Assembly: GCA_977020255.1 (NCBI GenBank)
Contig: CDROCS010003798.1
Coordinates: forward strand, 124,001 to 188,000
Source: Obrimoposthia wandeli
Lineage: Eukaryota
Reading direction: 5' to 3'
Length of the DNA stretch: 64,000 bases
The position numbers were made by a program, and so were the translations under genes. Under the pieces are notes generated by a model, which saw nothing but the letters and a program-made list of their open reading frames with translations, searched no databases and had not been told where the DNA came from. Positions 11,520 through 51,529 of the stretch are shown piece after piece. Position 1 is the first letter of the stretch. The number at the start of each line of letters is the position of its first letter.

Positions 11520-11949
11520 AGCATTTCTTGTATGCACAATGCTCTCCATGTTTAATATATGGATAATTGATATTTGATAGATTTAATTGTTTTAATGTTT
11601 TCGAGTATTTTATCACTCATAATTCAGGAAAATATTTATTGATTGTCTTTATTTTAGCTCCATTATACTCATATAAAACAAAGAAAATTGATTTGAATAC
11701 ATCACATCAATGTTTTATTTACTCAGTTATTTCTTTTATCTTCAACTAGTTTTAGTCGATGGTAATGCTTAATGAGATATCTATTTATTTTTCTTGATTT
11801 TCTAATTATCATACCCCATATAGGTTGCATTTTAAAAACATAATGTTTAGGATAGAAGATTGCATCCACATCCATTATACATAGTTCTTTATTACAAATT
11901 CAGTATTATTATCAATAAAATCTTTAAAATCAATAAAATAAACAGACAT
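11520..11949 (-). pseudogene. Broken ORF relic, possibly an RNase H-fold/DEDD-like nuclease
   Basis: Starts MSVYFIDFKDFIDNNTEFVIK, then with a frameshift LCIMD; resembles the hDhQGF..nneFivKEL pattern recalled from Polinton/viral ORFs. Several frameshifts. Confidence 0.3.
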
Positions 11950-11986
11950 TTTTTATACAAATAATTTTATTTGATATTGTTTATAT

Positions 11987-12349
11987 CTATTGTTTATGAT
12001 TTAACCAAAGCAGACAGAGTTGTGCACATGACTGTGTTAAAACACTTTGATAATGTTTCTTACTAAAATGTACTTTCTTTCCAGAATCAAGTACTGTAGA
12101 TATTAATTTAGAAGGGTAATATATCCCAAAGGGGTCAAAAACAAAGATTTCATTTTCTTTAACATGTATTGCAATACAATGTTCACCATGCAAATTAGAT
12201 GAATGTGTATTGATTACATATCCACCTAAACGAGTCAAAGAGGGGATGTGATCAAGACTGTAGACTCCATTGAAACGCGAACCGAGTAGTTTTCTTCCGC
12301 TTTTTGTTATCTCGTCCGAACTAGAATATATAGTAATTAATAAATTCAA
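11987..12349 (-). CDS. Adenain-like cysteine protease
   Basis: VINT..GEH, FDPFG, YQS..TQSCAQLC: His/Asp/Gln/Cys catalytic set; ORF intact. Confidence 0.88.
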   Translation of the reverse strand: MNLLITIYSSSDEITKSGRKLLGSRFNGVYSLDHIPSLTRLGGYVINTHSSNLHGEHCIAIHVKENEIFVFDPFGIYYPSKLISTVLDSGKKVHFSKKHYQSVLTQSCAQLCLLWLNHKQ

Positions 12350-12393
12350 ACTGACTTACTTCATTTATATCTTCTTTATTGTTTTCATTCTGT

Positions 12394-13605
12394 TTATACT
12401 AGTACTGTTCCTCCCTTGGTAATTTGAACCTCAGAATCGAATACTCCATAGATTATAATATTAGTAGGATGTTCAAGTGCTTTTGAAAACTTGATTTCTA
12501 CTTTCAAATTTCCCTGTTTAGGGATTTGAGCTTGATTAATATTGAAATCAGGAGAGAGAACAAATGTGAACAGTGTATACTTGTCCTTGAAATCAGTCAT
12601 TGAAATTCCAATATTAGCATCCTTATCCAAATGACCAAGATTTCTAATTAAAGATTGCACATAAGAAAACACATAATCATTATTTTCAAAGTCATTCGTA
12701 TAAGATTCTTGATAATCAATATTTCGTGCAAGTTTAATTGAGCTCACATTCATGTGTCCAAATTGAGAAACCTCATTTTTAGACTTACCTCCATAGGTAG
12801 AAGTGTTTTTGAAAGCAATTAAAACAAAGTTTAAAAGTTGCATACTACCAAATATCTGATCATTGTAATAAGATTGTGCTCCCGTAGGGATAGCATGAGA
12901 AACAAGATTAGTTTTTCTAATAGGATAACATGGATTTTGCTTCTCCAACCCTATTCGATGTGCAACGAGTACAGATGGTTCCACCTTTACTCTACAAACC
13001 AGCAGTTTTGCTTCCGTAATCTCAATTGCTGCTTTAATAGTATCAGCGCAAACAACACTAAAACCTACTGGATTTCTCTTCATTCGAATGTGTGCCCTTA
13101 CACCGGGTAAAATATACTTTGGTTGCTTAAATAAATCCAAATGTAGACTCCCACAAAGTGACAATCAAAGCTGTTCTTTTTTTTCATCATCATCAAATCC
13201 AATTGCATCAAGATTAATCAATTTCGTATCATTACCGTAATTCAGTAATGTTTCAATCATTGCTTTATGGGTGTAACTAGTATTATGTCCCTAAATTTTC
13301 AAATTATTGAGACTGATAATCACATCCTTGAAAAGAGTATGCAACATGAAATTAGCTAATTTGATATATAAATCATCGTCCAAATCACCTCCTCCTTCCT
13401 TTGTAACTTTCAATTAAACGAGAAATAAACTATCGTTCTAATCAAGATATTGAGTATTGGATCCATTTATTTTGAATCCTAAATCCGGAGAAGTAGTCCC
13501 GTTAGCCGTATTTGTCGGAAAGATTTCTTCAAAACTAGCACTATCAACTACAACCTGAGGTATAGGTTTATCGAATATACACAATTCAGTTTTAGCACAA
13601 CTCAT
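12394..13605 (-). pseudogene. Major capsid protein (double jelly-roll), four in-frame stops in the 5' third
   Basis: MSCAKTELCIFDKPIPQV... continues in frame through stops into ORF 12394-13164 (GSLHLDLFKQ.KYILPGV; GNLKVEIKFSKAL..PTNIIIYG.FDSEVQI). Confidence 0.85.
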
Positions 13606-13712
13606 TACTTAAAAATTGTTCCACCTAGTTTCAAACGTTTGTTTATACCCGATGCTTTACATGTTTTCTAACGTTTATAACCACTTCCCTTTTGAGTTTT
13701 CTTTCTCAAAAA

Positions 13713-13967
13713 TTAAGCTAGACTTGGAGAAATTTCATTCACCTGGTCCAAGGCTGCATCCTTTAGTGTGGGAAGAAATTTCTCATCACCAGACAAGTAT
13801 TTTGATCCAACATTAGCAATAAATTTCCCGAGTCGCTTGAGTAGTGGGAAAGCAAAACGACCAAAAACTTTCCGCCATCCTGATCCATACTGTTTTCCCA
13901 CAAAATATGGCAAATCACCTCCTTGCATTGGTTTACTATACGCATCGATTATACTTGAATCAATCAT
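13713..13967 (-). CDS. Small Polinton core/membrane-lytic-type protein with adenain site
   Basis: MQGG|D site, QYGSG motif, then a basic amphipathic helix (WRKVFGRFAFPLLKRLGKFIANVG). Confidence 0.6.
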   Translation of the reverse strand: MIDSSIIDAYSKPMQGGDLPYFVGKQYGSGWRKVFGRFAFPLLKRLGKFIANVGSKYLSGDEKFLPTLKDAALDQVNEISPSLA

Positions 13968-14985
13968 AATTTACGAAAATGAACCGTTAAACTTGTTTTA
14001 TCTCCGTAAGCAAATGTAATTAATCTTCCAGAATAATTACGTATATTAACTTCAATATTGTTAATAGAAGAAGAACTCACTGGAATATACATTGGATTTT
14101 CAATTGGAATATGTATAATATCACAATACTTGTGCTTTTCCTGTTGAACCCAAATTTATTTATTAAGGGAAGTTTAGTTCCTCCTACGAATATTGGTTCA
14201 GTAATACTCGTGTAGATATAAATCTGATTATATGCATTAGTCATTTTAGGAATAATCTTTGCTTTGAAAACCTCATTTTTATTTTCAAATTCATTTTCAT
14301 CAAAACCGATAATTGAGGCTAATGATTTATACATGACAACTTTAACAATATTTGATTTCAATTTGAAATGAATCAATTTATTAACTAGTTTAAAGTTTTC
14401 AAATACATTTGGTAACATTGTTTTAAAATGTTTACACATGCTTTAACATTCGGGAAAAAGAAAAACATTGGGAACTGAATATAATTTCCTCTCGCGTTTA
14501 GTGAATCTGCTTTTTATCTTGAATGTAATTATCGGATACTTGATGTGTTTATCCATAATTCCCGAAAACACATGTTTACCTTTTTCAGGATTAGTTGGAA
14601 ATCCTTATTGTTGTGCAACAATCTCATCACTAAAAAACTATTTCAAAATTATCCCTTTTCCTATAATTTGAATTCGATTCTCTTTATTTAAAAAGATTGT
14701 GAAATCATCGCCCGCCTTAAAACGAGCCAAATCCATTTGACCCTTATCAAATAGTAAAGTCACATCAGTTACTTTATCAGCTTCTTGTTGAGTAATATAT
14801 TCAATCTCAGTTTCACTTTGAATATATAGAGGAGAGTAATTGAAAGAAAATTCCGTAAGAGCAGCTTCCCAAGCACCAGGTAAATTGATTGAACTTTGAT
14901 AATCAATACTAAAACTAGTAGCAGTATTATTCGGTTGAGTTAATGGTGAACCAATACTTGGCAATACAACATAAATTTAGTTCAT
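13968..14985 (-). pseudogene. Minor capsid (penton, single jelly-roll) protein, disrupted
   Basis: MN*IYVVLPS..PNNTATSF..WEAALTEF at the N-terminus; IYIYTSITEPIFVGGTKLPL and TVHFRK-like end. Start overlaps the integrase stop (ATGA). Confidence 0.78.
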
Positions 14986-16010
14986 TCTATTTGAGAAGCT
15001 AATATACAACTAGGTTCAGTATATCCATGCCACTTAACACGATATTGTTTATGCTTTCCTCTCCCTTTTGTCTCTAAGATTTCTTGAATTCTATATACAT
15101 TTGGTTTCTCAGGCAAGACTTGTAATTCCTCGTGATAAAATTTACCCGTGATTACATTATTGCTCTCATCCTCAATGAAATACATTCCCGGTACATGTTT
15201 ATTATCAATTTTAGTTATACGAAATACTTCATCGCTCCAATTATCTTTAAAATTCTTTATAAAAGGAGTAGTACTAATTTGAGAAATACGTACATAATCA
15301 CAAACTTTATACTTGGGTTTCTTTACAACTTGACTTTGGTTACGGCGTTGCCAAATTTCCATAGCATTCTCATCTGTAACATCAACATGTCTCTTTCGGT
15401 TTAATGATGAGTGCTCACTATGATTGTATGCATGTATTATTTGAGGTAAAACAGTTACCAAGGACTTATTTCCCTGCTTTGTGAAATACCTTTTCAATCG
15501 ATCTCTCAATGTTCGATTAAAACGTTCAACTAAAGCAGCTTTATATTGAGAAAATACTGAGTAATGATTAATATTATGTTTTTTCAATAGTGCACTAACA
15601 TGTTTATTAAAAAACTCCTTTCCATTATCCGTTTGGAAATTTCTTGGTTTTATTTCTTTAATCAAAAGCTCCAATGCCTCTAAAACATCGATACCAGACT
15701 TAGACTTTAATGGAATAGCTCGTGCGAATCTGCTAAAGACATCAATACAAGTTAAAATATATCGATGTCCACCGTTAATACTCGCATTGGGAATCAATTC
15801 CATAAAATTTGCTTACCATAAATCATTCGGGCCGCTCGTTTTGTATGATCTCGTTGGGAACCGACTTCTCATTGGTTTGTTTAAGCTGTAAGCTAATTGA
15901 TTTCTCAACCACACCTGAGTTTCCTTTTTCCCCTTTTTTGTCTCATTTGCTAATTTTGAAACCCCTGTGTAATCAACGGGATGACTTGGATCGAACCATA
16001 TTTTCTCCAT
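14982..16010 (-). pseudogene. Retroviral-like DDE integrase with C-terminal chromodomain, one premature stop
   Basis: ORFs 15813-16010 and 14982-15803 are in frame across W*ANFME (expected WQAD, so first catalytic Asp appears as Asn); FQTDNGKEF, VERFNRTL, YRVKWHGY. Confidence 0.92.
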
Positions 16011-16107
16011 TGCAGCAAGACGATTTGATTTTTAAATTGAATTTAGGAATAGATGGAAGTGATCCCATATATAAATTCATATTATTGATTCGAATTTATG
16101 TTTATAA

Positions 16108-16530
16108 TCATCGGTTTATTAGTCTACTAGCAAGTGCACCAACTATTGAGCTAATAATTGGTACGAGAAATCCTAAAAATCCACCACTTTGCTTATAAAG
16201 CAACTTACGTTTACCGATTCGTGTTTTGGCATGAAACAAAGCAAGTAGAGGTTTCTTATGCCGATTCAGGTTAGCCTTGACAATTACTTTACCAGAAACT
16301 ATTTTCTGTATCATATTAAGTAAATCATCAATTACAAAAGTAGGGAATTATTTAAGAATAGCTGGGCGGCGAATAGCAGGTGCACGCATGAGAGAATTGA
16401 AATAGGCAATACTCCTAGATTTCTTAACAACACTTCTTTTCGATTTTTGAGCAACCATTTTCCTTGCACTTAAAACTGATTTAATCAATTTTTTAACTTC
16501 GGGTTTAACAGTTTCCTTTTTAAAATTCAT
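16108..16530 (-). pseudogene. Basic core-like protein with adenovirus pX-like C-terminus, one in-frame TAA
   Basis: ORFs 16348-16530 and 16108-16314 are in frame (33-nt gap); ends KQSGGFLGFLVPIISSIVGALA, similar to pX GGxLPxLIPxIAAAIGA. Confidence 0.6.
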
Positions 16531-17177
16531 CTTCGAGAAACTGGTTTCTTTATTTGTTTATAGACGATTATTCCTGATGGATTGAATACATCAGTTCTAA
16601 CTTTAAAGTCATCGGGACAATCTTGAGTAAAATCAATAAAAATGTATCCATGAGGAATAGTAGTTGCATCTTGAAATGAATCAATTAAAAACTTTCTATT
16701 ATTCGGGTAAGCTTGTCTTGAAACAAAATCAACAACCGTCTGATCACGTGGATTCTTGAAGAGAACAAGGTAATGTACATTTAAATTACGAGTTCTATGG
16801 TTCTCTCCTTGATGAAATAGATTTTGTGTGATGAAAATAACAGTTACTTCCCGATGTCGTGCTATTTTAGTGAATAAATTATTGAAATCACTCTCTTTAT
16901 TTGCTTCTTGATATAAATCATCAATAACAATAACATCATGTCGTTGTAATCGCTCAGACCAATTATCATCAAATCCATTAATGACTTTTATATTTTTGAT
17001 TTTCTTAAACTCTTTACTGGTTAAACCGGCTTCTCCATCTCCTCCCTGATGCCAGTATATCTTATTAAACTTAAAAGTAAAGTATTTATTATTTTGTAGA
17101 AACTTACATACAAAATGATTTTTCCCACTACCACTAGGACCTACAATCTGAAAAACTGAATTATTTTTTAAGTTCAT
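16527..17177 (-). CDS. A32/FtsK-like genome packaging ATPase
   Basis: Walker A GPSGSGKN, Walker B VIVIDD, RHREVTVIFITQNLF, YLVLFKNPRD; intact. Confidence 0.93.
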   Translation of the reverse strand: MNLKNNSVFQIVGPSGSGKNHFVCKFLQNNKYFTFKFNKIYWHQGGDGEAGLTSKEFKKIKNIKVINGFDDNWSERLQRHDVIVIDDLYQEANKESDFNNLFTKIARHREVTVIFITQNLFHQGENHRTRNLNVHYLVLFKNPRDQTVVDFVSRQAYPNNRKFLIDSFQDATTIPHGYIFIDFTQDCPDDFKVRTDVFNPSGIIVYKQIKKPVSRR

Positions 17178-17178
17178 A

Positions 17179-17595
17179 TTAAAAATAATAGATTATCGGG
17201 ATAATGTTTATAAGACAAAACTCTTTAAATTTTTTTATTATAATACATCCACTAAGAAACAATAAAAAACTCTTCTCCCAGAAAAAGCTCCTTTTCTCTT
17301 CTTTTTTTGCAAATTCTTCTTTCTTCTGATTGTATCCCAGAATGAGATGATTGACTGCCTTGTCGTGCACCATTCTTCTTACCTGTTCCTCCAAGGATAG
17401 ATTTGAAACATCAATGAGTTTCAGGACATCTTCTTCTATGACATTCTTCGAGATGAAGCTCTTCACCGCCTTGTCAACATTTTGCTTGAAATAATTTGGA
17501 GTAGACATAATGAAGAAGCAATAAAAAGTAATCTGCTTATATACTATACATCTGAAATCTGATTGGTTAATAAATACACTAACTAATAAAGACAC
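17179..17595 (-). CDS. Hypothetical Polinton protein (likely true start MSTPNYFKQ near 17508)
   Basis: Open frame with coding-like composition between the ATPase and the phosphatase; no motif recognised. Confidence 0.45.
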   Translation of the reverse strand: MSLLVSVFINQSDFRCIVYKQITFYCFFIMSTPNYFKQNVDKAVKSFISKNVIEEDVLKLIDVSNLSLEEQVRRMVHDKAVNHLILGYNQKKEEFAKKEEKRSFFWEKSFLLFLSGCIIIKKFKEFCLINIIPIIYYF

Positions 17596-17640
17596 TGACT
17601 AATAAAGACACTGATTAATAAAGATAAAGACGAATAAAAT

Positions 17641-18207
17641 TTACACATGATAACGATTAAAAATACGTATATGATGAAGCATAGCTTCATTAGGAGCAGC
17701 AGTAGTCCGTTTAGCTTTAACACGATTGGAAGCAGCAGTAAGACCCATCGAATGAGATAAAAATGCAATAACAATGCAAGCAGCATGTAAACTACCATAA
17801 TGACCACATACTAAAATCTTACCACCATTTTCGATAGTTTCTTTAATTATATTATTAGTCTGTTTATAATATCTCATTATTGTTTCTCCTAATTTTGAGT
17901 TTACAAAGACAGAAGTATATTTTAATTTCTTATAAGATATCTTATCCAGTATAGATGAATTGATTACATGAGTGAAATCGGAGTTCAAAAGTGTAGTTTC
18001 ATCAAACTCATCTCTATAATTACCAATATATAATTGATTTACTAAAATCTCACTCATTTTTGTTTTGTTTAATTTTTCTACATTAAGTTGAGTTAATCTA
18101 GCACTAAACAAACTATCAAAAATATGGGTCATGTGGTTCATTTCCATACTGGAAGCATGAGCTATTATGGATTCCATAAAATCCAAAGCATTTAAAAATC
18201 TAATCAT
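17641..18207 (-). CDS. Dual-specificity phosphatase-fold protein with degenerate active site (pseudophosphatase)
   Basis: QLYIGNY..FTHVINS, KILVCGHYGSLHAACIVIAFL in place of VLVHCxxGxSRSATIVIAYL, VKAKR...PN; intact 188 aa. Confidence 0.8.
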   Translation of the reverse strand: MIRFLNALDFMESIIAHASSMEMNHMTHIFDSLFSARLTQLNVEKLNKTKMSEILVNQLYIGNYRDEFDETTLLNSDFTHVINSSILDKISYKKLKYTSVFVNSKLGETIMRYYKQTNNIIKETIENGGKILVCGHYGSLHAACIVIAFLSHSMGLTAASNRVKAKRTTAAPNEAMLHHIRIFNRYHV

Positions 18208-18242
18208 CTCTTATCTTCTTCAATAATCGGATCTATAATAAC

Positions 18243-18410
18243 TTATTCTATCGTCACTTCATCAATAGTTTCTTCTCTTTTCATAACTGTTGTTGTTGAT
18301 GTTGCTGGTGATGATGTTGCTGCTGGTGATGATGTTGCTGATGATGTTGCTGCAGGTGGTGATGATGTTGCTGCTGCTGGTGAACATGTTGCTGATGTGA
18401 TTTTCTCCAT
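18243..18410 (-). CDS. 55-aa Ser/Ala/Thr/Pro-rich mini-ORF
   Basis: MEKITSATCSPAAATSSPPAATSS...EVTIE*, with TATATAAG about 26 nt upstream; below the ORF-track cutoff. Confidence 0.4.
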   Translation of the reverse strand: MEKITSATCSPAAATSSPPAATSSATSSPAATSSPATSTTTVMKREETIDEVTIE

Positions 18411-18640
18411 TTTATCAATTCAGAGTTAATTTACTCTTATATACTAAACGATATGCTGATGAGGCTTCGAAGTCCGAAATGGTAAGTATTGAATGTTACT
18501 TACAACCATTCCCTTGTTATTAATATTCACTAATTTGATATTGTGAAGTAGCATTTCTGTTTATTATAAACTGATTTCTTCTATTTATACTATTTTAACA
18601 TCTATTTATAGATTACATGTCTTTGTTTAATTACCTATGT

Positions 18641-19630
18641 CTAACCTAATCTAATATTTCTTACTCGTCTAATGATAATTGTCTTGCAATATGGACATGG
18701 AATAAAACGATCTGAACATTTAATACACGTGTTTAAGTGTCCACATGGTAAAAATGCCACGGAAATCGTATCTGTCATGCAAACAACACATTCGGGATTT
18801 TTTAAGAGGTACTCGAGATAATTTATACGATGTTTTGGTTCAGATTTTATTTCTAAAGATCTTAAATCCGTTATAAACTCATATATAGAATCATATTTGT
18901 TACCGAATGTTTTAAATCTATTAACTAAAACGGCTTTGATTCTATCATGGCTATAATCTCGTTTCAGCAAAACTATTTGATGAGTTTCCATCTGAGCATC
19001 AATTTAATCATTACTAATATGATATTCAACAATACATCCGTTCTTGATTCCCATATTAGATTCTTTACAATCTTGAGTATGAAAGATTCTTTCAGGTATA
19101 GTATCAATAAACTCAAGCCGGAGTACTGCTTTCTGACAGAAACAACATCGATATGAATCATTCCAAATATATACATGAGGGAAAATCGATAATGTAGGTA
19201 TTTCAATATCATTAGAATATGTATTACGTACAATAACTACTTTATCCATTGGAGTTGAATCAAAATCAATTTGCTTGGTGCTGGAATCAATTATTGGTAC
19301 GTTTGAAACATTCCTTTTCAAAACAAACGGGCATCTTGGGAAAAATAGCTGATGCCGCTTCATTGGTTTCAGATAGTACTCCCATCCCGATATTCCTCCC
19401 TGACAGTAAATACACTTTACATTATATTTTGAATCATCGTGCTTGTAAAATCCTGCTTTTGCTAAAGCTCTCTTATCCGCTAAACCAGTAAACTTTGCTT
19501 GTAGTGATTCTAATCTTCTTTCTTCATATATCATATTTTCATTTCTTCTTGAAATCTTGTCAAAACGTTGTCGTCTAATGCTGAGTTCTCCATTTTCCGA
19601 AACATAATATCCAATAAATTTAGTAGTCAT
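18641..19630 (-). pseudogene. Inhibitor of apoptosis (BIR + degenerate BIR + RING), split by one in-frame TAA
   Basis: EERRLES..LAKAGFY..VKCIYC..W..H..FPRCPFV (BIR), second CCFC..H..C, C-terminal CVVC..AFLPCGH..C..C..CPYC RING. The two ORFs are in frame with a 12-nt gap. Confidence 0.85.
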
Positions 19631-19779
19631 AACATTGAATGTAGAAATTGTCTAGCTTATATAGTAAGTGAACATCTATTTTCAGTAACATTCTTAGTAT
19701 TTACAAGAATAGTCATGTGATGTCTTTGTCTTAAGAATAAAGCAGTATAAACAATATTTTGCTAATGATTTTATTGAAA

Positions 19780-20459
19780 ATGAATAATCAAAATAATCAA
19801 AATAATCAAAGTAAAGCTAGTACATATATAGGTTCCGGTAGTAATTTATATTCTAATATGAATTATAATATAAATAATCAGAGAGAAAATATTAATCCAT
19901 CAAGTCAAACAATAACAAGTCCTACGCGCGTAACCGAAGAACGTAAGCCCTTTAAGGATATGACTAATACTAAACTATTTTCATAAACAAGAATGTTAAC
20001 CAATTGAGACTAAACGACTTTCATAAACAAGAATATCGACCAATTATAATTGAGCTTTAGAGGATAAACAATTGAATATTTCAATTTATAATTGTCAATA
20101 TGAATTTTGAAAAGCTATATCAACCTATGCATACATATTATGGATATGAGATGCACTTTTTGAAGAAAGCTCATAACTATAATTTTATTTTTCCCGTCAA
20201 CATCGAGCCGCTTAAATTTGATTTTGAAATATCAAATTTGACTTCTGTGGATAAAGAGAGGATCAATATTATCTTGACTCAATTCGGAATCAACTATGCG
20301 CTTCAGGAAAACAAATTCGTGATCAAAGGATCAAATGCCACTTTCAAGCATGAGAATGGAACAATATACGAAGTACCTCCTCCTAAGCAAGAATGGATTC
20401 TCTTAATCAGAATTCAAGGATGCAAGGTCGGACCCAGTGGATTGGAAACTCCAACATAG
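19780..20459 (+). pseudogene. Unknown Polinton gene on the opposite strand (Asn-rich N-terminus plus ORF 20100-20459), probably one frameshifted gene
   Basis: Two ORFs bridged by coding-like sequence in shifted frames; TATAAA near 19745. Confidence 0.4.
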
Positions 20460-20567
20460 AAAATAATTGAAGCTGTTAGAGTTGACTAATAAATTTTTGT
20501 GTCTTTATTTGTATTATTTTATTTTATATATAAACAATAGTGATACTTTAATAATAATATTTATTAT

Positions 20568-20922
20568 GAAAATGACTAAAAAACCTACTAAATCATTAAA
20601 GTCGAAAAAGACTAAGGTATAAATATGATGTAAACTATGAGTAAAAAGAAAATCATGGGGGGTTTGGGTATTCATATGATGGTAGGAAATCTTTTAGGTA
20701 GATGGTTTGGTGGAGTTGATAAAAAAGCTATAAAAAAAAGAATGTGGATTATATTAGAGGGAAAATGGGAATGGATATACAAAAAGGAGATGGTATACAA
20801 AATGGGGATGGTATGCTTGATATTTTTGTAAAATTAGATAAAGTTGTAAAAGCATTTGAAAAGGATCCTAGTGCATATCTTGGTAGAAAACCTTTACTAA
20901 AACCTCCAAAGTGTTTGTAATT
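20568..20922 (+). pseudogene. Basic Gly-rich core-type protein, frameshifted in a poly-A run
   Basis: KKIMGG|LG adenain-type site; after the shift DIQKGDGIQNGDGMLDIFVKLDKVVKAFEKDPS...KCL* (QxGxG motifs). Confidence 0.45.
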
Positions 20923-21769
20923 ACATAAAGTTGCAATATAGATGCAGTACGTGACTGTCTTTGTAGCTATTGATGACTGTCTTTGTTAGACACTCAGACA
21001 CACACACGTGATTGTCTTTGTAGATATTGATGAATGTCTTTCTTAGACACTTACACACATACATGCCTGTATAAGAATAAATGAAGTACGTGACTTGTTA
21101 CTATTGATTACATAAAGATGCAAGTATTTGCAATATAGATGCAGTACGTGACTGTCTTTGTTAGATAGATACACGAACGTTTAAACATATTTATCAAATT
21201 ATATAATACTTTATTTTATAAGTAGATAATATAATTTAATTTAGTTTAATTGAATTTAGTTTAATCATATTTATCAAATTATATAATACTTATTTTTATA
21301 AGTAGATAATTTAATTTAATTTAAATAAATTATATAAGTTTGAACACACACACACACACACACGATATGTATTTTGGTGAAGACTGCATATTAATACCAC
21401 CTTTAGATAAAAAGATATATAGTTTTAAAGTATGTTACTAAAAATAAAATATGAGTCATCGATGAGTCATCAATGAGTCATTAATTAGTCATATTTTAAG
21501 CTCACCGTGACCTTAAATGACATTGTCCTCATGACGTCATGACCTTAAATGACCTTGACCTCATGAGGTCATGACATTGACTTGACCTCATGAGGTCATG
21601 TCCTTATTGTGACCTTAAGCTGGGCTCAAGGGGGTATGCTCAAAACGTCTTTGTCCTGAGCAGAGGGGGTCATGACCTACATTTTGTCCTCACCGTGACT
21701 TTAACTTGACCTACAATTTTGTCCTCATCATGACCTGAGCTTTTTCCAGAAGTCACACATCCACCTACT
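20914..21769 (-). repeat. Right TIR of the Polinton (~856 bp, complete)
   Basis: Inverse of the left TIR plus ~180 bp outer extension ending CCACCTACT; has an internal ~55-bp duplication and an expanded CA tract; flanked by GTATCT. Confidence 0.92.
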
Positions 21770-30700: not shown

Positions 30701-33700
30701 ACGTAAAGTTTAATAGCATATATTGAAGAATATTTTAATCGATATCAGAATCATAATGATTCATTTACAAATTTCATTCCGGGCCCTTTTAATACGTTTA
30801 CCAGTTTTTAAATAAACTTAAATATATTACATTTTGTTATTTATAAAAATATATTTTACTAATTTACAATTTTTATTTAAACTTTTACATTATATTAATT
30901 TATTGTGGAAATTTATTAAAAAATAATTTTATTATAAATGATGCATGTAAAATTTGTTGTAAGTTGGTATAATAAATATAAGACAAACTAACTTTGTAAA
31001 ATTCCAACATACGACAAAACTGTTCAAAAATATTCAAATATTTGTCTTTAATAAAAGCGGGAAAACGTTTATAAAAATGTTTTAGACTTTGTAATTTTTA
31101 TGAAGTAAAACAAAAAACGTTAAAATTGTAAACAATGAACAGTTAAACTACACTTATTTATAATTTAATCTTCACGACGAAAAACTGAAAACAAAGTCGT
31201 TGTGATATACATTTATGAATGAAAAGCAACTTTTCAATTTAAATATAACTCTAATTGTTTATTGAATTTTTAAGTGATGCAAAATAAAAATTGCAAAATT
31301 GTTTCAATGGTTTATATAATGTTTACTCTCTAATGTTATAAGCATTGATAGGAGGACCAAATAAACTCAAAATCAGAAAATTTAATTTAATATGTAATGC
31401 ATTTATGCTAGCCAAAATAAAATTGCAAAACATTAAAAATATTTGAAAAACCAAAGTTATAACTACATTTATATATTAATTTCCAAGCTTTAGTAGTGGT
31501 ATCATTGCCTTTATTTATCAAACACTTAACCAGTCTTTGAGGAAAGGATTCGTATAGGGATTTAATGAATGTCAGATGGATGCTGTCCCAAGCTTTTATT
31601 ATTTATCTTTGTCGTAGTTTTGCTTGCCATGTTCGTATAATTTGTTTGACATCATAGCCCATACATTTTCTAAGCTGTTTAGATCTGGACTTTGAGGGGA
31701 GCATTTTAAAGAATCTTTCTTTTGTTCTTGAAGCCATTTTTAATAATTTTAGCACTATGAACTGGAGAATCATCTTGCTGGAAAACCGAATTATTTGATA
31801 GCATTAAAATTAGCAATGTTTCTAATATAGATTTAAATTCGGGACTCTGTAATGTTCCATTTACAACTGCTAACTCGCTTTTTACATTATACCCAATGGC
31901 ACCCCAAACCATAACTATACCTCCTTCCAACTTATATCATTTGCCTTCATATAATTTCGGATGGTTTGGCAAGACACCTTGATATCTAATGTACTTCGTT
32001 GTGCATGGAATTGAATTAACTAGCATTTTTTATTTGACGAAGTGTTCTATCCAACAGTATCCGTGTACTTCGACGAGTTTCTTTTTTATAACACATCTTC
32101 GTTTAACATAACGATATTAAGTTGAAAGATTTCGTCCTAAAACACATGAAATCTTGGATGGGTTAATTTTCAATCTCAGAAGAATAGTTATTGTAAATTT
32201 TGCTTATTTCGACAAATGCTTTGATAAACCCATCTTAATATGATTGCTAAATACATAGTTAAGGTAAAATGTACAGAAACTTACGTTTATTAGCCTTAAA
32301 ATATTAATGAGATCAGGCCCAGCGAGATCAGATCGAGCTCTAGAAGCAAGCTGCAAAGTTGTGAGATTGGTAGCTAAAACCGAAAAGCCCTACACAATTT
32401 CTGAATCACTCATTTAATCAGCTTGTGTGGGAATTGGCAAAACCATGTGGCGATCAATGAAGCAAAATAATTGACCATGTAGTTAAGGTAAAATGTACAA
32501 AAACTTACGTTTATTAGCCTTAAAATTTTATTTAACAAGATTTTGCAATTTTTATTTTGCTACTTTATATGCGATATATTATACTCGATATATAGATTCA
32601 AATTAATTTATAATGTATTATAAGTAATAATGTATTAAATTTAGAAGTTTAAGCGTAATTTCATAAATTTATTAAGTGTCATTTGTATTTGAAAGTAAAA
32701 TTGCAAAATGTTACTGTTATAATTTGAAATGTATTTAACTTTAAAATATTTTTTATTTTTGCATTTATATTTTTGCAGAGTGCATATAAGGTCTTTGAAA
32801 TTAAACCACTATACTTCAAGTGGATGTACCACTTACTTTTATTTTTAAAAATAACAATAATATAGCAATCATATCTAACGAATATTCTAATTGTCTGGGT
32901 TAAATATTCTTCTTTTTAATATTTTCTGAATAGTAAAGTCGTTAGCTAATTCCTGAATTTTTAAAGATTATTACAGTTTTTATATCCATCGGTAGTCTGT
33001 TGTAAATATTTTGGAGCGTAAATTTTAAATATTCAATCACTCAGTTTGTTATTTGATTTTACCAGACTAGAGAAAATCACTTATATTTGGGCTTAGGATA
33101 TTAAATTCATTCTAGGTACTTTTCTGCGGTCAATGAACATGCTCCCTTTTACTAGCACTCTCATTTAATTATATTTCTTATGGTTTTGTTTTTTAAAGCT
33201 AGAATAAAATATTAGACAGTAAATAATTTTGAAAAATAAAGTATTAATCTAATTATTGCATGGGTTAACATTATATTTACTGCAGTAGTAGGTATTTCTT
33301 AACATGTTCTTATCCCTTTATTAATTTGACTACTCATTGCGAAATTTTCATTATATCTACTGCCATGTGACAGATCAAATATATTAACATTTTTCATTTA
33401 TAATTTACATTTATGAAAAAAATTGACATTGATAAAACTTGATGAATTAATGCAGCAATATAATATCAGTGAATAAAAAAGAATACTGATCACGAATGTT
33501 GATGAAATTTCTGACAGTGACAATTAATATAATGAAGAAGTTATTTAAACTGTTAAACCTAAAATGATAAATGATCACATAAATGTTAGATTAAAACAGT
33601 GTTAAACAGTGATATGACAGCTTTTTCAGTTGCCAGCGTTCGTATATTCACCAATATATAGCAAAACAAATTGAATTCCCAAATTCTCTGGACTAGTGTT

Positions 33701-36700
33701 CTTTTTCTGATATTATTATTATTCGAAAACGGTACATGGTCAATAATTTTGCTTCATTGATCGCCACATGGTTTTGCCAATTCCCACACAAGCTGATTAA
33801 ATGAGTGACTCAGAAATTGTGTAGGGCTTTTCGGTTTTAGCTACCAATCTCACGACTCTGCAGCTTGCTTCTAGAGCTCGATCTGATCTCGCTGGGCCTG
33901 ATCTCATGGCAGAACTTCGCGTTTGAATGTGATTCGCAGACGCTTGAATAGTTAATATCCTTAATTATGTACGAAGAATGTTTGGTACAAAGGTGCCAAT
34001 GGCTTCATTGCTTCATTTGAGAACTTTTCCCGAAACTCACAATGGGAAGAATTTTTGGAACCAACTTAACCAATTTATGTTATCCTCAGTTTGAGAGTTA
34101 TGTTGCACTGTTAGATATATTTCATTGGCTCACTTTCTTTGTCAGGCGAATCTGACGACTTCTCAGTTATTTTTAAATATTTATACATGTGAAAAGCAGA
34201 TTTAAAGTATCATATATGTTCATTGCAGAAATAACCGTAGCGATATTTTAAATGGTCTTCTGTAGAAAATGGTTTTATCATTCGAAAGATACACTTATAT
34301 TTTCATATTCAGCAAATGATCGCATCTAAATGTCTTGCTGAAATTAAAGCAAAGCAACTAAAAATTGAAAAGCATCTTAATGGGTTACGACTATTAAAGT
34401 TTTCAAAATTTAATATAATAAATTATAAAAGTTTAAAAATCAGTTAATAATATCGTTCACTAATTACTTATGATAATTTCAACAACAAAACATATTAAGA
34501 AAAATGCAGCAGCTTCGTCATATTAAAATTCTTATTTTTGTATTTATTAAAATAAAATAGTTGTAAGTTTATTTTGTTGAAATCATATTACCAAATTATA
34601 CCATTGGACATTTAGAACATTAATTTTTCGCGGAACATTTCTGGAACTCCTCTTTGAGGTCTCTTCCATATGTTAAAGCCACATTCATCAATATAAATAC
34701 ATTGCTTCGTGGTCCATTTTTCTTCAATTAAGCACTTCACATAATCTCGACAAAGCCTTTAACACTTTCAAAGTTTTTCTCTGTGACAGAAGTTCAAACA
34801 AATTTGAAACTGTAAAGCTTTAAATAATTCGCTACAGTGTTATTGGAGCAAGTTATGGAAAACTTCTGACCCAAAATTAGCGCCATATGATCGAGGGTAT
34901 GTTCTATGAAAATATGTTCTATAATATAAGCTAAACATGAAATCACATATGGTACCTTGTTTGTGTGTGAGCCTATGTTTTTATCACCGTTGATTAGAGG
35001 TATCATGGTTAGTTTTAAAGTTAGTGTACGGAATCCTATAGTAAGTCTTTTTTATTTTACCTAAACTTATAATAATTCATTATAGATTATGCACAATTCT
35101 GACGATTGTCACCTATGACTTGAATTAGGTGACACCTCCTTTTACTTTTAGAAACTTTTCCGAAAAGTCACACATAACTATGCCAATTGCAACACCATCG
35201 TCATTTTTTTTACTGACAATCTGTCTATACTTCACTGACAAATGCAGGTATCTTAATTTTATTGGCCTATTTCATGACAGATCAAAATTATTCAATATTA
35301 CTTATGAAGCATATTATTAGATAAGCATTTAATTTCACTGTTAATGACTAAAACTGGTACATTAAACACGAGATTAAAATCGTACAAAACGTTTAAACGG
35401 TAAACACGCCCGTACTTAGTAGTTAAGTTCATTGTCGCTGTATGTATGAATGTCCAGTTAGACGGACTAAAAGTAAAAAAATATTTGATTAGCTCTCCAA
35501 GATATTTGCATTTATGAAATATTGATAGTGTTAAAACTGATAGTATTATCGAACCTTAGGAAAGATTCCCCAATGGATGTGGTTGAGCGACCAGTTTGCT
35601 CTGCATCATTGGATTGGTTGGCACTAGGTGGTTCCACCTCGATTACGATTGTGGACGGTTCCGAATCAATCGAATGACGTTTCTGGGACAAGGGTAAGAA
35701 TTCTACTTCAGTATCATTACCGTTCCAGTTATTTCATCTAAGTACTGTTATTAAACTATGTCACTTGGGATGAAAGCAGAACGTTTCCGACAGAGACGTT
35801 TCGGATTTTTGGTAAAAATTGCTGTTCTTTCTAATAAATGTTTTGGTCAATTTATAAATATTTTCATTATTTTAGTTAATTATATTTAATAAATACATGA
35901 TTGAACTGATATTTTGTTTAAATATATTCTTATAAATTTTTTTCCGAATTGAATAATTCTAAATTTTCTTTTTACAAATTGACTCAAATTTATTTTATTA
36001 TAAATTTGTTAGACTTAGAAAAAAGGAAAATGAAAATATCAAAATAAGAATGTATACTAAATAAAAAACTTTCTAAATTGAAGGTTATAGAATAATAAAA
36101 TTAAGATAAAAAATTCTTTGATAATAAAAAGGCAGCAAAAAATTAAAAACTTAAAAGGCCATGAATATGAGTCTATAAGTTAAGAGAAACAAATTTAAAA
36201 AAGTCCGAGGAAAAGGTATTAAGTAAGGAATCTCGGAGAAACTATGTGAAATCCACAGCATCCAGTTGATCAGCTAAACGTCTGCATCAACATAGTAGAT
36301 AATGACATTCGATCGAACAATTATTCCAACGAGAAAACCCCAACAAATTGACTCAAATATAATTTTATTTTATTTTAAATTGACTCAATTTTTTCAACTA
36401 ACTTTTTCTTATAAATGTGACTCAAATCAAAATTTTCGGAAAACTATCTATTTCTTATAAATAAAATCTATTGGAAAGAAATCTAATTTATATCAAAAAT
36501 CTGAAAATTTCGACATGTAGTACTTTTAAATATGGCCAGTCCGAAACGTTCGTGCACCATTAATACCTGTACCAGTAAATTAAGGATTTTCAAGTACATT
36601 GTTTAATTAGCGAAAATTTGCTAACATTTTAACTAAAAAGGGTCTCCAATTCATGTTCAGTACTACACACGACATTTATATTATATTTGACTTTTGTTAT

Positions 36701-42700: not shown

Positions 42701-45700
42701 AAACAAATAGAATACGTATATTTTGACACAGTAAACTATTAAAAAAAGTAACCCTAAAAGTTAGATAAAAATCCGTGGAAATATTCAAAATCTATTTTTA
42801 CGGAAAAAGTGAAACAAAGCATAATTCATTAGGTTTCTGAAACAAAAGCACAGATAGTAAATAAATTGAGCTTTATTATCCAATTTATCCATACAATATG
42901 TTTGTTGAAGTTATTTTCTTCGTTATTTCGACACTGCGGTTCACCTTTTTGAATGTTGTTTATTATACTTTTACTTAAAATAAAAAAACCAGCAAATACT
43001 ATGAAATAAATGGCAAATTTTTGAAAGGTTCAATTTAGAGCAAAATTACAACAACAAAAACAACTTTAGAATTGTATAAATTAATTCAATCTTAAAATTA
43101 ATTAATCTGGTCTTTTGTTTAAGTAAGCTAATTTTCTGATTTCCTGAATTCAAATGAAATTGCGACTATTTTAATTACAGGGATTAATGGATATTCGAGG
43201 AAACATAAATCATAGGAAGTAGAAAAGTGTAGCAGCGAATATTTGCTCTAGCTCGATTCGTAATTAGGATTTGAGAATTAGTTTTTTTTACTCAAAGACA
43301 ATTAGGAGTAAAATAAAATCAAAAAATGATTGTCTTCCCAATGAAAAAACACTTAACTGATTTGAAAATTAATTTAATTAATTATTATTTAACGGAAATT
43401 CTTGTGCTCATTAACTAGGATAGTTGAGGCGCACCAGGGTTGCAATAATATAAAAGATTTTTAATATATTTTCTATTATGGAACTTTAATGGAAATTTTA
43501 TGTTAAAAAATCATGTTAAATGATTTTTTAATATTTAACATTTAATTTTATTAGAAACGTTATTTTTTATTTAAATTGTACGTATAAAAAATGACCATGA
43601 AATATTTATTTTTGGTTAACCTTAATATTATTTTTACCTCTACTAGTGAACTGATTACATTTTGTGTAGGTCAGGAGTTTCCAAAATAAGTTCCGTAGAC
43701 AAAATCAGGCCGAAATTTAATAAAAAATAAACTTACAAAACTGGGCATTAGCGTTTCTCGCCTTTACCTACCAGGTCATAGGCCCACTATAATTACTTAA
43801 TAAATACTTCATTAGTTTAACTTTGAATTGTTTATTCATTTTTCAATATAAATAAGTTTTATTTTTATTCTTCACTTGAGGGTTTTAAGTATTTATAAAT
43901 AGGTAAGAGTTCCAATATTTTATAAATAATACCAAAGAGTTGCGGCCAAAATTGATTGGGAACTCCTGGTGAAGGCCAATTTTATTTGTAATATAACATT
44001 TAACATTATTATGTGTATCTTAGATTGCTCAGCAACCCAGCCTGGATAAATCATGAGCTGTATTGACAAATATACTGGTGGTGAGACAGGAAAATTGAAG
44101 ATATTTGCATTCGCACAGTCAAAACGAAAACTATGACGAACTAAGCTGTAATTTTTGATTGACACTTTGTGTTATCTGTCCGTATCAAGGAAATGTAACA
44201 ATCACCGTCTGGTGACTCCAGTTTCTCGACTACTGAGGTCTACAAAATGTTAATGGCCATTTAAGACAATCAACAAATTAATTATGAAACGAATGAAATA
44301 TCACATGATCCGAAATTACTTCTATCAATACTTCCTGTTGATCAAAAAATTTCAGTTACCACTCAGTTTCTAATTTTCCATGAAGTGTTGTTAATGAAAT
44401 GTAGATACAGAATATTCAGAAACTTTTCAGATGATGTATTGCATGATGAATCTGCCTTTTGGAAGATGCTAGTTATATTTAATCCTCCTAAAATGTATCA
44501 TACTTCGGGTAATAACTGCAGTTCTTCCAAAAATATCTCTCGACAACTGAAGACTCAAAGCCCCCCCCCCTTTGTTCCTTTGAGTTAGTACCGACACTAT
44601 ATACTACTCAAACCATATGAAATTGGAGTTCCTGACATATCGGACTTCAGATCTATTAACCATTACTATATTCTTACCTATAGAGATTTGGGAACTAGAA
44701 AGAATAAGCAATCCAATTTTAAGTGGTGTTGCTTCGAGAATTTTATCTGTTCCAGTGGACTCATTTGGTGTTGAAAGAATATTCTCCAAGTTTAAATGCA
44801 TGAAAAATTACAGGGAACAAGATTATCGATGTCATCACCGACACATTGATTAGAGCATTTACCAACAAAATACATGACACAACTTTTATTGTGATAAAGA
44901 AATTAGTGTATACATCATTTTATTGGAAAGTAGTTTTGCATAATCAATGAGTTTAAAATTGTATGAATTATCACTGAAAATATTTAAGCCGGGTTTTAAA
45001 AACAACTGATTTATAATCTGATTTATACCCGATTTGATTTTTAGAAATAATCCCCTATAATTTCTCGGGAAAAGCAAATTAAACTGACGATGCTCACCTG
45101 TCAAAATCTGTTTACTAGACTACCTCTGCAATTTCTTGATAGAATTTCCATGTCGAAAAGCTTTTACTCGTTGAATTAGCTTGAGTATATTTAACTTTAT
45201 ATAGGATACGATGGAACTTTTAAATAGATTGTCATTTATTAATTTTGAAAAGGAAAATTATTTTTTAAATTATTTATAAACAGTGTATAAAATTATATCG
45301 TATGTTTTTGAACATTGCATTCCAGTAGTTCATCTAGAAGAAATAACCTATGTGGTAACATTTTCCCAACACATTAACGAATTTTGATATTATTTTCAAA
45401 TGAAAATTGCACATTGTTAACCCTCAGCCTGCCAACGTGTGATTTTAAAAATCACACTTCATATTATTTACAATTACTTGATAAGTTGAACTACGAATTG
45501 TATATCCATACATTACTTTGCCTAATTATGTGTGTTGACTACAATCGTGTAATGAAAATAAATTATAAGCAGTTGACTGACTGAGACAGATATTTTTCAA
45601 GCTTTGGTACAACAACTCTTCTTCTTACTGAACATAATACGACTTATTTTGGAACACTAATGTGTAATAAAAGGGACATCCCACCGATTATCCATCAACG

Positions 45701-48700
45701 AATGGATTTGTACCTGTCTTCTGCTTTAGGCTGGGAGGGCCAGCCAAGAGAGTGACCCCTATGTAGTTATCAAGCAAAGACTAAAAAAGGTTAATATGAT
45801 TTACCAATGCACCATGATGATTCAATTGGTGATGAGAGTGTGAAGAAAAAACCAGTAATTATAACTGACTATAACGCTACAAAAGCAGGTGTTGATTCGG
45901 TCGACCAAATGATCAAACAATACACCACTAGGTTCAAGACACGAAGATGGACAGTTGTGCACTTCCAAAATTGGCTCGATGTTGCAGGCGTAAATAGCCT
46001 AACCTGTGTCATCCAAATTGGACAATAATAAATCAAGAACTCCTCACCGAAGACTATTTCCTGAAGACTTTAGCGAAAGAGCTAACACAGCATACATGAA
46101 AACGCGCATAGCAGCAAATCGGGGTTTACAACGTCCATTGATCCAAATGATCGAAAATTATGTTGGTCCGATGATTGGTCCCAATATTGGTGGGGACGCT
46201 GTCGATCAAGCACCTGCAGGTCATGAAAAATGACGATGTTCGCTTTGTAAAGCAACAGGGAAAATGCAGCGTTTATGCAACCTAACAAAAATGACATGCC
46301 AGGTGTGTGACTTGCCAGTCTGTGGTAAGCACTATGAAGTGGCAGGTGTAATCTGTCTGAATTGTAACTGAACTTTAATCTACTTCTTTATTATATTTTG
46401 GACTTCAATTCTATTACTTGGACTTTATTTCTCTAACATTTTTATAAAGTGCATTTTTCGTGTTTTAAAATAAAGTGCATCTATGCATTTTTAGTTTATT
46501 TTTTATTTTATTATAGCCCTTTTCACACTTGTTCATGAATTTAACTGACTAAAACAATGAAAAATACATAAATTAAGGTGTGATTCTTAAAATCACACGT
46601 TGGCTTGAATAGGTTATGTCAAACGTTGGCAGGCTGAGGGTTAATAACGTGTTTGTTTTAATTTCTATTTAATTTTTATCAAAGTGAAAGCCAAAACATT
46701 AAAAGGAACATTATTAACAATAAATACCCCTGATCATGTTAATGTGACTTACTACCTTTTTGTTATTTTTAAACATTAAACTATTGGCCAAAATAAGCCT
46801 TTTCATAATTGTCCAGATTTACGTATATGTCATCCTTGCAATTCCTACCCGATTCAGCATGTGTTCTCAATCAACTTGGGTTTTGCATGATAAATACGGC
46901 ACTTTGAAACATCAGGTGGCGAACAATTTATAGCCGGATAGAAAACGTCGTCCTTACCTGTTTATTTGCATTTAATATTTCCAAATGGTAAAAATGCGCT
47001 ACTGATATTTCGTATTTATATTTAGATATTTGTGAGTATGCCTCGCTTCCACCGATGATTTTGTGCGATCTGCCGCTGACAACGGATTTAATTTCGGCGT
47101 CGAGGTGTATTAACTATCTTTACACAGTTACATTTAATTATTAAGTGTATCATGTGGTTTTTCTGATTTTTATTTTTTAAATTTAAATTATAACATAACG
47201 AATATTTCCACTACGTCCAATTTTTTAGCTGTGTTCTTTATCGAAATATTCACCACCCAGAACTTTCAGTTCATGTAACTGTGGATTGACTAACTTTGTA
47301 TGGGTGTTTACAATATCAGGATATCTGCAATGTATTGGAACTTTCGATAACGGTCTTCTGCGAGATTCGTCCTCAGACATCTCTCGAGTACTTCGCCGAA
47401 TTCTGCACGGTTCTTACTGAAAGTGAAATGTTGGGGAATGCAACCAACAACGAGCGGTGGATTGAGGATGGATTATCAACGTTTTGAAACTGCATATATG
47501 TATGATAATGCCATTTTAGTTGGTTCTGTGTGTACCACACAGCAGCGATACAGCGGACTCACTTGATGGATTTAGGGGCCTCGGTGGGTACCAAGGTAAA
47601 CCTCTTTCCGTGCAGTAGTACCGGTCTGCTGATGGGTCTTGAGGGACCTAGCAAGCTGCTACTGCTGCAATATATGGTGGGGTGGCTGGTACCGGGCTTC
47701 AAGCCGGCAAATGGGTCTCCATTGCTCCCAGAACCCGACAGAGGGAAGTGTTTTACCTTGGAGGTAGAGCTGGGAACAAGGTAATTGAGAAATTGTCAGA
47801 CAGTTAAATGTACAGTGGAGTTTACGAGATCTGAGCCCTTGGTATCGCGCAAAAAGGCGTTCAAATTACAGAGATTTAAGGATTTTATATTTTGATTTTA
47901 TATAGGGTTTGATAGGATTCAGATTGACAAGTCTCACTCCATTAGGGGGTTTACAACATATATGTAGAGGTAAGAGAGCCAGGCCGGAAATAAGGAAAAT
48001 TAAACTGTAATCCATTATAACAAATTGTTTGCGCAAAGTAAATAACTTTTAAACAAATTCAGCTCATTTCCAGTGAATTTAGTGAAGGAAATTTAATTTG
48101 TACGACTCTGAGAATTGAAAACTCACAACAACTATCGGTGAAACTCTTAGCTACGGCTAGAAATAAAGAGTCGGAATATTTGAAGTTTTCTATATAAAGT
48201 TATGTACAAAATTGACTTAATTTATTAAAAGAATTGCAAGAATATAAAGACTTTCAAATAATGTTGGAGATTTTCCTATTAAACAAGTAAGATGGAGAGT
48301 CCTAGCTACAATAAACTGCGTGCCATGAAGTACCAGTCTCAGAGGTCCTGTAAATAATGTCTGGTGCACCTTCCAGAAAGTTTATGCACGATAAAATTCC
48401 ATAAGAGTAACATTACAAGAACCCCAAAATTCTGTCAGTTTTTGGTGATTATTTCTGTCGTTGGCATTCTAAAAAGTCGATTTGAATTATCTTAATTAAA
48501 GACGTATAAACTATCTTTAGAATGGCATGAAATTAAGAAAATTCGCTTCACGAATAGGGCAGTTAAATGACGTAGTGAATAACACAACATCTTTGTAAGC
48601 CGGGATTCAAAGATGAAACATTTCAGTGAGCTGTAAGATCCCAATTAAGCTGAATATGAGGTTACAATTTGTGATTGATGATTGGCCACCATTTACAAAG

Positions 48701-50963: not shown

Positions 50964-51019
50964 ACTTTTTAACTCATGGCTCAACGAATTGTCGTAGTTG
51001 AGCTGATGAGTTAGAAAGT
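50964..51019. other. 56-nt hairpin with a ~21-bp stem
   Basis: ACTTTTTAACTCATGGCTCAAC pairs with GTTGAGCTGATGAGTTAGAAAGT around an 11-nt loop. Confidence 0.5.
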
Positions 51020-51529
51020 ACACTTTACACTACTAGACAAAAAAAAATAAAAAAATAAGGGTTGTTCTAATGCCATGGCATCCGAATACCGAATATCAAA
51101 TAATTATTGGAAATTGTTACCCGATAAAAGATAGTTACCAATCCCTCAAAGATTGGATTAATAACTATGAACATAAAATTAACAATAATAACAATAACAA
51201 TTAAATTGAGAGCAGATTGAAATGAAATATTATCCCTTAATTGACGAGCACTAGTATTAACATAATTGGTAGATCGAGAAATGCTACCTGAAGCCAATCT
51301 TGCCAATTTTTTGGTTATATTGTCAGAGGAATATTTTAAACAAATGTTAAAATTCACAAACAGATAATTAAATTGAATTTATATAATTAAATTACAAATA
51401 TTTATAATTATATAACAAGGAAAATTTTGTCCATGAACTAAATATAAATTAAATTAAAATTAAAATTAAAAAACAGAAACTCTAATAAAAAAATCAATTA
51501 ACTTAATTTGAAAATTAAGAGGAAGTTCA

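Follow-up and report, generated by a model that had tools for sequence, protein, structure and literature searches.

A DSP-fold protein with replaced catalytic residues carried by a Maverick element in Obrimoposthia wandeli

Catalysis by dual-specificity phosphatases (DSPs) requires a Cys, an Arg, and an Asp, and the Arg is required to hold the phosphate. An ORF in a stretch of 64,000 nucleotides of the O. wandeli genome (contig CDROCS010003798.1, positions 124,001 to 188,000; hereafter, the window) encodes a DSP-like domain in which these residues are replaced. This raises the question of whether the gene is a phosphatase gene in decay, or whether its product is kept for a function other than catalysis.

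Fold, catalytic positions, and host element of the ORF

The window ORF matched Pfam DSPc (PF00782) with 46.1 bits against a cut-off of 33.5, and the AlphaFold model of residues 31–188 reached a pLDDT of 90.4. MKP5, DUSP22, and other DSPs matched the model at TM scores of about 0.8, with all DSPs scoring alike, and viral DSPs matched it equally well. The model was built on an alignment of DSPs; it is thus not independent evidence and says no more than that the sequence is compatible with the fold. These results bear out the sequence-only reading of this DNA, in which the DSP fold was described as preserved.

In the alignment with human DUSP19, which is free of gaps over the catalytic loop, the His-1 column is occupied by Cys134, the catalytic Cys column by Gly135, the Ser-before-Arg column by Leu140, the phosphate-binding Arg column by His141, and the Ser-after-Arg column by Ala142, confirming the Cys-to-Gly and Arg-to-His replacements and the further loop changes noted from the sequence alone. 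To these, the loss of the general acid is added here: the window protein has Ser104 in a column that is Asp in 100% of the other 73 rows of alignment A1. Asn103, considered for the general-acid position, was dropped, as the column is that of Ser104. These comparisons suggest that the family represents a fold-keeping phosphatase devoid of all three catalytic residues, which is predicted to be catalytically inactive and is probably a binding protein, not an enzyme.

Catalysis might have persisted or migrated within the domain, with Cys134 (or Cys144) as the nucleophile and His141 as the positive group, since Cys134 is next to the place of the normal nucleophile and 86 of the 87 sister copies compared below have it. 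However, Cys134 aligns without a gap to the His-1 column and is located where the central strand of the model ends, no Arg stands at the needed spacing, no general acid is present, and the constancy of Cys134 is that of a young family. We regard residual catalysis of this kind as very improbable.

The ORF lies in an element that spans positions 7417–21590 of the window and is bounded by terminal inverted repeats, whose arms show 89–94% complementarity and lie about 13–14 kb apart, with ragged ends in the window copy (Table 1). On its gene content, the DSP ORF is cargo of a Maverick/Polinton-type element. The element appears virus-like from its genes, which is the only sense in which the label "virus-encoded", given in the sequence-only reading, applies. 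The ORF at 11987–12355, with a residue order judged by eye to be adenain-like, is one that we take to encode a cysteine protease, and the capsid fragment had no match in Pfam or PDB searches. Well over a thousand Maverick copies are present in the 1.35 Gb of genome scanned. At one place (L072–L074; G000:C21:88057-95646), the segment from the DSP gene to the ATPase gene occurs three times in tandem with a spacing of about 2.2–2.4 kb. The RING ORF of the window Maverick is 50% identical to that of a second Maverick family, and 44% identical over 117 aa to a RING of a retroelement (L091:3552-3899).

The window copy of the Maverick is decayed. In 46 of the 88 sister copies sampled, the DSP gene is open for 234–297 aa, and these long ORFs begin with M-E/K-K and cross a Ser/Pro/Ala/Thr repeat as well as an acidic stretch before the DSP domain, so that the 188-aa window ORF corresponds to their C-terminal part. 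The frame of the window copy is broken upstream of the DSP domain, with the N-terminal part in another frame, and the domain itself is unbroken. The description of an "otherwise intact ORF" thus fails for this copy. A TBP-like segment is present in 69 of the 88 sister copies, in one of which it gave a Pfam TBP match.

Table 1. Features of the Maverick element in the window, and TBP-like genes at other loci
Feature	Position	Strand	Basis or remark
Left terminal inverted repeat; 3 AP-1 motifs, 1 CRE, AGGTCA repeats	7417..7980	.	
Protein-primed family B DNA polymerase, in pieces	8365..10265	-	Pfam DNA_pol_B_2, three ORFs, E 7e-6 to 0.0025, each at or under cut-off
Probable cysteine protease	11987..12355	-	Weak Pfam C58, E 0.017
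C-terminal part of probable double-jelly-roll major capsid protein	12394..13164	-	Atlas look-alikes 0.97; DJR/NCLDV capsid families on 10-18% of members
Retrovirus-like integrase and chromodomain, two pieces	14982..16031	-	rve E 3e-11
pX-like core protein frame	16108..16347	-	Weak Pfam Adeno_PX, E 0.0025, below cut-off
A32-like packaging ATPase	16527..17177	-	Pfam
Small ORF of no known family, between DSP and ATPase	17179..17508	-	
DSP-fold pseudophosphatase ORF, 188 aa (window copy)	17641..18207	-	ORF list, Pfam, fold model
Residues 174-177 (EAML), place of the FNFL-type MAPK docking motif of MKPs	17677..17688	-	
Degenerate phosphate-binding loop, residues 134-142, C-G-H-Y-G-S-L-H-A replacing H-C-x-x-G-x-S-R-S type	17782..17808	-	
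Ser104 at general-acid Asp column	17896..17898	-	Ser in 86/87 copies, Thr in 1/87
Detached N-terminal part of DSP gene (Ser/Pro/Ala/Thr repeat, acidic stretch)	18243..18410	-	Separate 55-aa ORF, different frame
TBP-like segment remnant, 102-nt match	18453..18554	-	About 800 bp of most sisters absent at 18452
IAP-type cargo: BIR ORF 19004-19630 and RING ORF 18641-18991	18641..19630	-	Pfam
Right terminal inverted repeat	20931..21590	.	Related repeats run on to about 21740
TBP-like gene occurrences	L005:333-922; L103:1918-2463; L113:767-1341; L204-L206		

The replaced site and constraint among sister copies

A genome pattern with codons 134–137 left free matched 1,896 places and nothing in the control, with Gly at the Cys position in 99 of the 100 matches listed. 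When only the upstream 18 bases were fixed, Gly was found at 1,839 places and Cys at 19 genome-wide, and none of the 19 had a His before the Cys. The combination of Cys and Arg behind the family anchor gave no match in a genome pattern search, and a looser Cys-and-Arg pattern gave six matches against eight in the control, none with the family loop; copies with changed flanks escape these patterns.

Residues were counted in the first 91 places in contig order, from which three tandem twins were removed; 87 of the resulting 88 copies passed the coverage filter. Positions 138–140 were fixed by the search pattern and are therefore excluded as evidence. The Cys column contained Gly in 86 copies and Cys in one, and the Arg column contained His in 82, another residue in four, a gap in one, and Arg in none. 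In a second set of 85 copies (57 picked by protein search), neither Cys nor Arg occurred at the catalytic columns. A search for a diverged subfamily having the same loop with other Gly codons gave no match genome-wide, and a diverged copy used as the query returned the same family only, at 79–87% identity. Sister copies with an intact HCxxGxxR, the finding that was to be looked for against inactivity, were thus sought, and none combining Cys with Arg was detected.

The copies differ from each other by a median of 3.9%, and because all of them belong to one young family, fixation alone proves little. As judged from these copies, the dead site was already in the replicating parent, and its fixation does not show selection on the site. 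The gene may be a relaxed passenger that has become useless and drifts in a replicating lineage, its dead site fixed since one parent made all of the copies.

The pattern of change within the domain bears on this explanation. Among the columns conserved at 75% or more in alignment A1, which consists largely of hits to the window protein, 0 of 6 in the catalytic loop were kept, as against 17 of 26 elsewhere (P = 0.0055). In addition, at least 9 of the 18 bases in the six catalytic-loop codons depart from codons for the usual residues, far beyond the roughly 4% by which the copies differ among themselves. Catalytic positions have changed and fold positions have been kept, which argues for a selected pseudoenzyme. 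This contrast, together with the lack of any sister found with Cys and Arg, supports the earlier suggestion of evolved inactivity instead of a single decay mutation. Stops accounted for 14 of 227 private changes and for none of the changes shared by at least three copies, and a neutral drift of 0.2 substitutions per site at that nonsense share would be expected to produce about 8 stops. Long-term retention of the DSP fold after catalytic loss is supported by these sequence comparisons.

Present constraint was assessed by comparing shared variants, which have passed through replication, with private ones, which mostly reflect post-insertion decay. DSP variants found in at least five copies comprised 14 synonymous and 18 non-synonymous changes, compared to 42 and 185 for the private ones (ratio 0.29, P = 0.0025), and the ratio for at least three carriers was 0.52 (P = 0.05). 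The core domain alone gave P = 0.053 and 0.13, and shifted-frame controls at the three-carrier threshold ranged from 0.69 to 1.39, none significant. When only variants showing linkage to those of another gene were kept (linkage filter), the ratio was 0.53 (P = 0.24; 6 synonymous, 14 non-synonymous), and the 85-copy set, which is biased to shared amino-acid changes by its 57 similarity-picked members, gave 0.75–1.01, not significant. An early run with 57 copies had given 0.29 versus 1.10 on a per-site scale. In the unbiased set, the ATPase (0.09–0.26), RING (0.09–0.23), and TBP-like (0.16–0.36) genes showed tighter constraint than the DSP gene, which is far less constrained than the capsid fragment and the ATPase. 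The low dN/dS that had been proposed as a check is thus seen weakly: it is significant at five or more carriers, and not significant after the linkage filter or in the biased set. These results read as a constraint on the DSP gene that is probably real but relaxed today.

For the passenger explanation, three of the four settings gave a weak or null signal of selection, the fixation comes from one young family, and the stem branch in a quick tree, in which the Maverick rows were unplaced, had 1.84 changes per column, with a median of 0.67 for the end branches. Conversely, the open frame and the core residues are kept at about 70% divergence from any active DSP, the changes are concentrated at the catalytic positions, and the synonymous excess among high-frequency variants is significant. 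We consider it unlikely that the gene is such a passenger.

Relatives and origin of the DSP gene

A word search for homologs outside this genome gave 66 candidates, none at E ≤ 0.001. In a full scan of 1.84 billion representatives, the best score was 60.0 bits; the 150 hits listed showed 22–38% identity, and 136 of those had HCx5R. An Atlas search with the window protein returned generic DSP clusters and nothing closer, and IMG/VR scans gave no useful relative. The Maverick DSP was found in four of the sequencing runs listed, from one sample, none of them RNA. Within the genome, a canonical-motif pattern that excludes some loop types matched 40 places, comprising 36 retroelement-like variants and four exon-like single genes, one of which was matched weakly (30 bits) by the window protein. 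In the quick tree, the Maverick DSP, left unplaced on a long branch, grouped neither with MKPs nor with STYX, and stood apart from the STYX-like proteins P0180 and P0190. Another protein, P0006 (931 aa), contains three DSP domains in tandem; in all of them, Ser replaces the catalytic Cys and the Arg is retained.

The slot that holds the DSP gene was compared between Mavericks. Two other Maverick families in this genome (one copy each; ATPase 73% and 76% identical) share the TBP-like and ATPase genes with no DSP between them, and the same was seen in three metagenomic relatives with contigs spanning the slot (ATPase 72–76%); the metagenome scan used one query sequence and returned 5 loci, although 434 ATPase relatives are present as proteins, so that the DSP absence rests on few contigs. 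These slots without a DSP suggest that the gene is a lineage-specific capture into a variable slot. A resemblance of the N-terminal part of the DSP gene to the slot gene of the metagenomic relatives L205 and L206 was rejected (E 0.24 and 2.1).

The two other Maverick families adjoin copies of the window family, at L103:13-3179 (cargo order TBP-IAP-ORF-ATPase) and L113:3-2530 (TBP-ORF-ATPase). Each of the three Maverick families here carries the compact TBP-like gene, as do three of the four close metagenomic relatives, where it is about 145 aa long; the gene shows purifying selection.

A second high-copy element in the same genome also bears DSPs, with an intact DSP motif in 30 of 30 loci. This giant Gypsy-type element (L091:3-9998 and L092:2-1639; G000:C399) is present in at least 150 copies, with open frames up to 4,633 aa. 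The one copy scanned has a single long frame with a fusion glycoprotein, two aspartyl protease hits, a BIR, a RING, RT, RNase H, an integrase, and the DSP. The intact-motif DSP domain is followed by a degenerate second one, whose loop was read in 20 of the 30 loci and contained Cys or Arg in none. A broken pPolB and an endonuclease VII match at L093:3169-5240, about 10 kb downstream of the Gypsy DSP, indicate that another Maverick adjoins it.

The active-motif Gypsy DSP scored 63.1 bits against the window protein, above the 60.0 bits of the best of the 150 hits listed, with 30% identity extending into the helix before the domain; the full margin is 3 bits, and for the core domain alone (phmmer) the lead is reversed, at 58.5 versus 59.4. 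On these scores, it ranks first among the relatives of the Maverick protein, by a small lead. The motif after Pro-Asn is EAML in the Maverick protein, versus LNFL in the Gypsy DSP (28 of 30). It is conceivable, though doubtful, that the Maverick DSP came from the co-resident, envelope-bearing giant Gypsy (or from a common donor), was then made a pseudoenzyme, and could compete with or regulate the Gypsy DUSP or its targets. If true, two unrelated virus-like elements in one genome would have in common a kit of IAP and DSP for host control, and each would possess a dead DSP domain of its own. With IAP-plus-DSP cargo present in parallel in the Maverick and the giant retroelement, cargo sharing between element classes becomes testable.

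The Gypsy element resembles Burro-like giant Gypsy elements, as described in parts of PMC6431247, in its in-frame fusion glycoprotein, BIR, protease, RT, RNase H, and integrase within one long frame, and differs in its RING and the two DSP domains after the integrase. The main text of PMC6431247 contains neither "phosphatase" nor "DUSP".

Candidate functions and comparison with known systems

The explanation that we favor, at a probability of roughly 0.5, is that the protein is a binding module that needs no phosphate and acts on a host regulator, within a cassette that includes the IAP and TBP-like genes. A DSP gene would have been acquired by one Maverick lineage, in the variable slot that separates the TBP-like gene from the packaging ATPase, and catalysis would have been lost long before the recent burst of the family, with the protein kept for its fold. 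The DSP domain would bind a host regulatory protein via a surface outside the pocket, and the pseudophosphatase may cooperate with the neighboring IAP and TBP-like genes so that the host cell survives and stays permissive during replication of the element. Expression, the binding role, a partner, and a connection with the IAP and TBP-like genes are presumed here; binding of STYX to FBXW7 and of MK-STYX to PTPMT1 (passages of PMC8622459) would be the analogues of such a role. Against a binding module, the constraint is weaker than that on the ATPase, RING, and TBP-like genes and is not robust, and relatives manage without the DSP gene.

The terminal repeats bear on a role in MAPK signaling. Each repeat contains three TGA[CG]TCA motifs and one CRE, and 2,000 shuffles of the left repeat yielded a mean of 0.07 AP-1 motifs and a maximum of 2; the AP-1 motifs sit in a short tandem repeat, and hence are not three independent events. 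Many AGGTCA/TGACCT hexamers, which we take to be nuclear-receptor half-sites, also lie beside the AP-1 and CRE motifs (window 7417–7560 and 21440–21740). The AP-1 sites that the sequence-only reading had placed in the repeats therefore stand, at three per repeat, and the tie that it drew from them to the pseudophosphatase is one of proximity only.

That reading had proposed a decoy trapping phosphorylated MAPKs. Such a protein would bind JNK, p38, or ERK, as a pocket trap or a STYX-like anchor, and tune AP-1-driven transcription from the terminal repeats. The clustering of AP-1 and CRE motifs in both repeats is consistent with this role, and STYX, which likewise has Gly for the catalytic Cys and lacks a kinase-binding domain, is a nuclear anchor that binds ERK (passages of PMC8622459); MKP5 is also among the top fold matches, although all DSPs score alike. 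However, the Maverick protein has neither the Arg nor the Asp to hold phosphate, and a full-length sister passed the Pfam cut-off for DSPc alone, with no rhodanese-type (CH2/kinase-binding) domain. KIM-like patterns occurred in 501 of 1,000 shuffles, so that the two found carry no meaning. In addition, according to parts of PMC4802042, MKP7 binds JNK1 via 285-FNFL-288, and F285D abolished the binding, whereas the Maverick protein has EAML at the docking-motif position in 69 of the 72 copies readable there (of 88; 16 unread), with three single variants. The quick tree likewise placed it with neither MKPs nor STYX. Without the Arg, a kinase-binding domain, or an FNFL-type motif, trapping of phosphorylated MAPKs is not supported, and a MAPK-directed role in any form is improbable.

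A virion-associated structural or accessory function, like that of the baculovirus PTP, would fit the position of the DSP gene, on the same strand as the ATPase and virion genes and just upstream of them, and the BmNPV PTP acts as a virion structural protein, not as an enzyme (parts of PMC3320614). On the other hand, close relatives with an ATPase identity of 72–76% have the slot without a DSP, and the constraint is far below that on the capsid fragment and the ATPase. We regard this function as quite unlikely.

The binding-module explanation can be set beside known pseudophosphatases. STYX, whose structure 2r0b was among the PDB matches (E 4e-7), is alike in its stand-alone DSP domain, the Gly at the catalytic Cys, and the lack of a kinase-binding domain. 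It differs in that, in the Maverick protein, the Arg, the Asp, the His-1, and both loop Ser residues are also changed, the N-terminus is of low complexity, and the gene belongs to a mobile element. MK-STYX (STYXL1) is alike in that the His-1 and the Cys are both replaced, and differs in keeping the Arg (FSX5R) and having a CH2 domain. In the changes described in passages of PMC8622459 for STYX (C120G in HCX5R) and MK-STYX, the Arg is left, and MK-STYX is reported there to have no direct ERK regulation and to act through other partners.

Among animal DNA viruses, the bracovirus PTPs and the BmNPV PTP are likewise captured host phosphatases. The bracovirus PTPs, proposed to be mimics or pseudophosphatases (parts of PMC4553618), form multigene families delivered to the parasitised host, in contrast to the one DSP gene in a Maverick here. 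The BmNPV PTP still has phosphatase activity (parts of PMC3320614), whereas all three catalytic residues are changed here. Adintoviruses and animal Mavericks, as presented in parts of PMC8502044, have the same pPolB, integrase, ATPase, capsid, and pX-like genes, and carry Bcl2 and IAP accessory genes, the latter as here. Non-catalytic roles of captured viral phosphatases (PMC4553618, PMC3320614) and IAP cargo in adintoviruses (PMC8502044) are thus already known from the parts of these sources cited. The main text of PMC8502044 does not contain the word "phosphatase", the available portions of PMC11410931 and PMC2646287 hold nothing on a Maverick DSP gene, and in the main texts of the open-access literature, no DSP, whether active or dead, was found described as cargo of a Maverick.

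A Maverick DSP that is fixed in more than 1,800 copies, with more catalytic loss than STYX or MK-STYX, would offer a natural case for the DSP fold without phosphate binding. The IAP and TBP-like neighbors may point to Mavericks steering host signaling as viruses do.

Other features were seen in the window outside the Maverick. A 105-aa ORF at 1150–1467 (plus strand) has a signal-like N-terminus and a Cys-rich C-N-x-C-x-C motif with no Pfam match, and is presumably pacifastin-like. An array of tandem repeats, each about 39 bases long, at 3347–4693 is open in all three minus-strand frames, and its Pfam matches look spurious. The region 51000–58000, with strong strand skew (GC and AT skew near −0.3) and short ORFs on the minus strand, one of which has a weak match to a zinc knuckle, is probably a decayed retroelement. 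Small inverted-repeat elements at 32307–33907 (175-nt arms, 98%) and 45410–46651 (33–40-nt arms) are probably non-autonomous DNA transposons.
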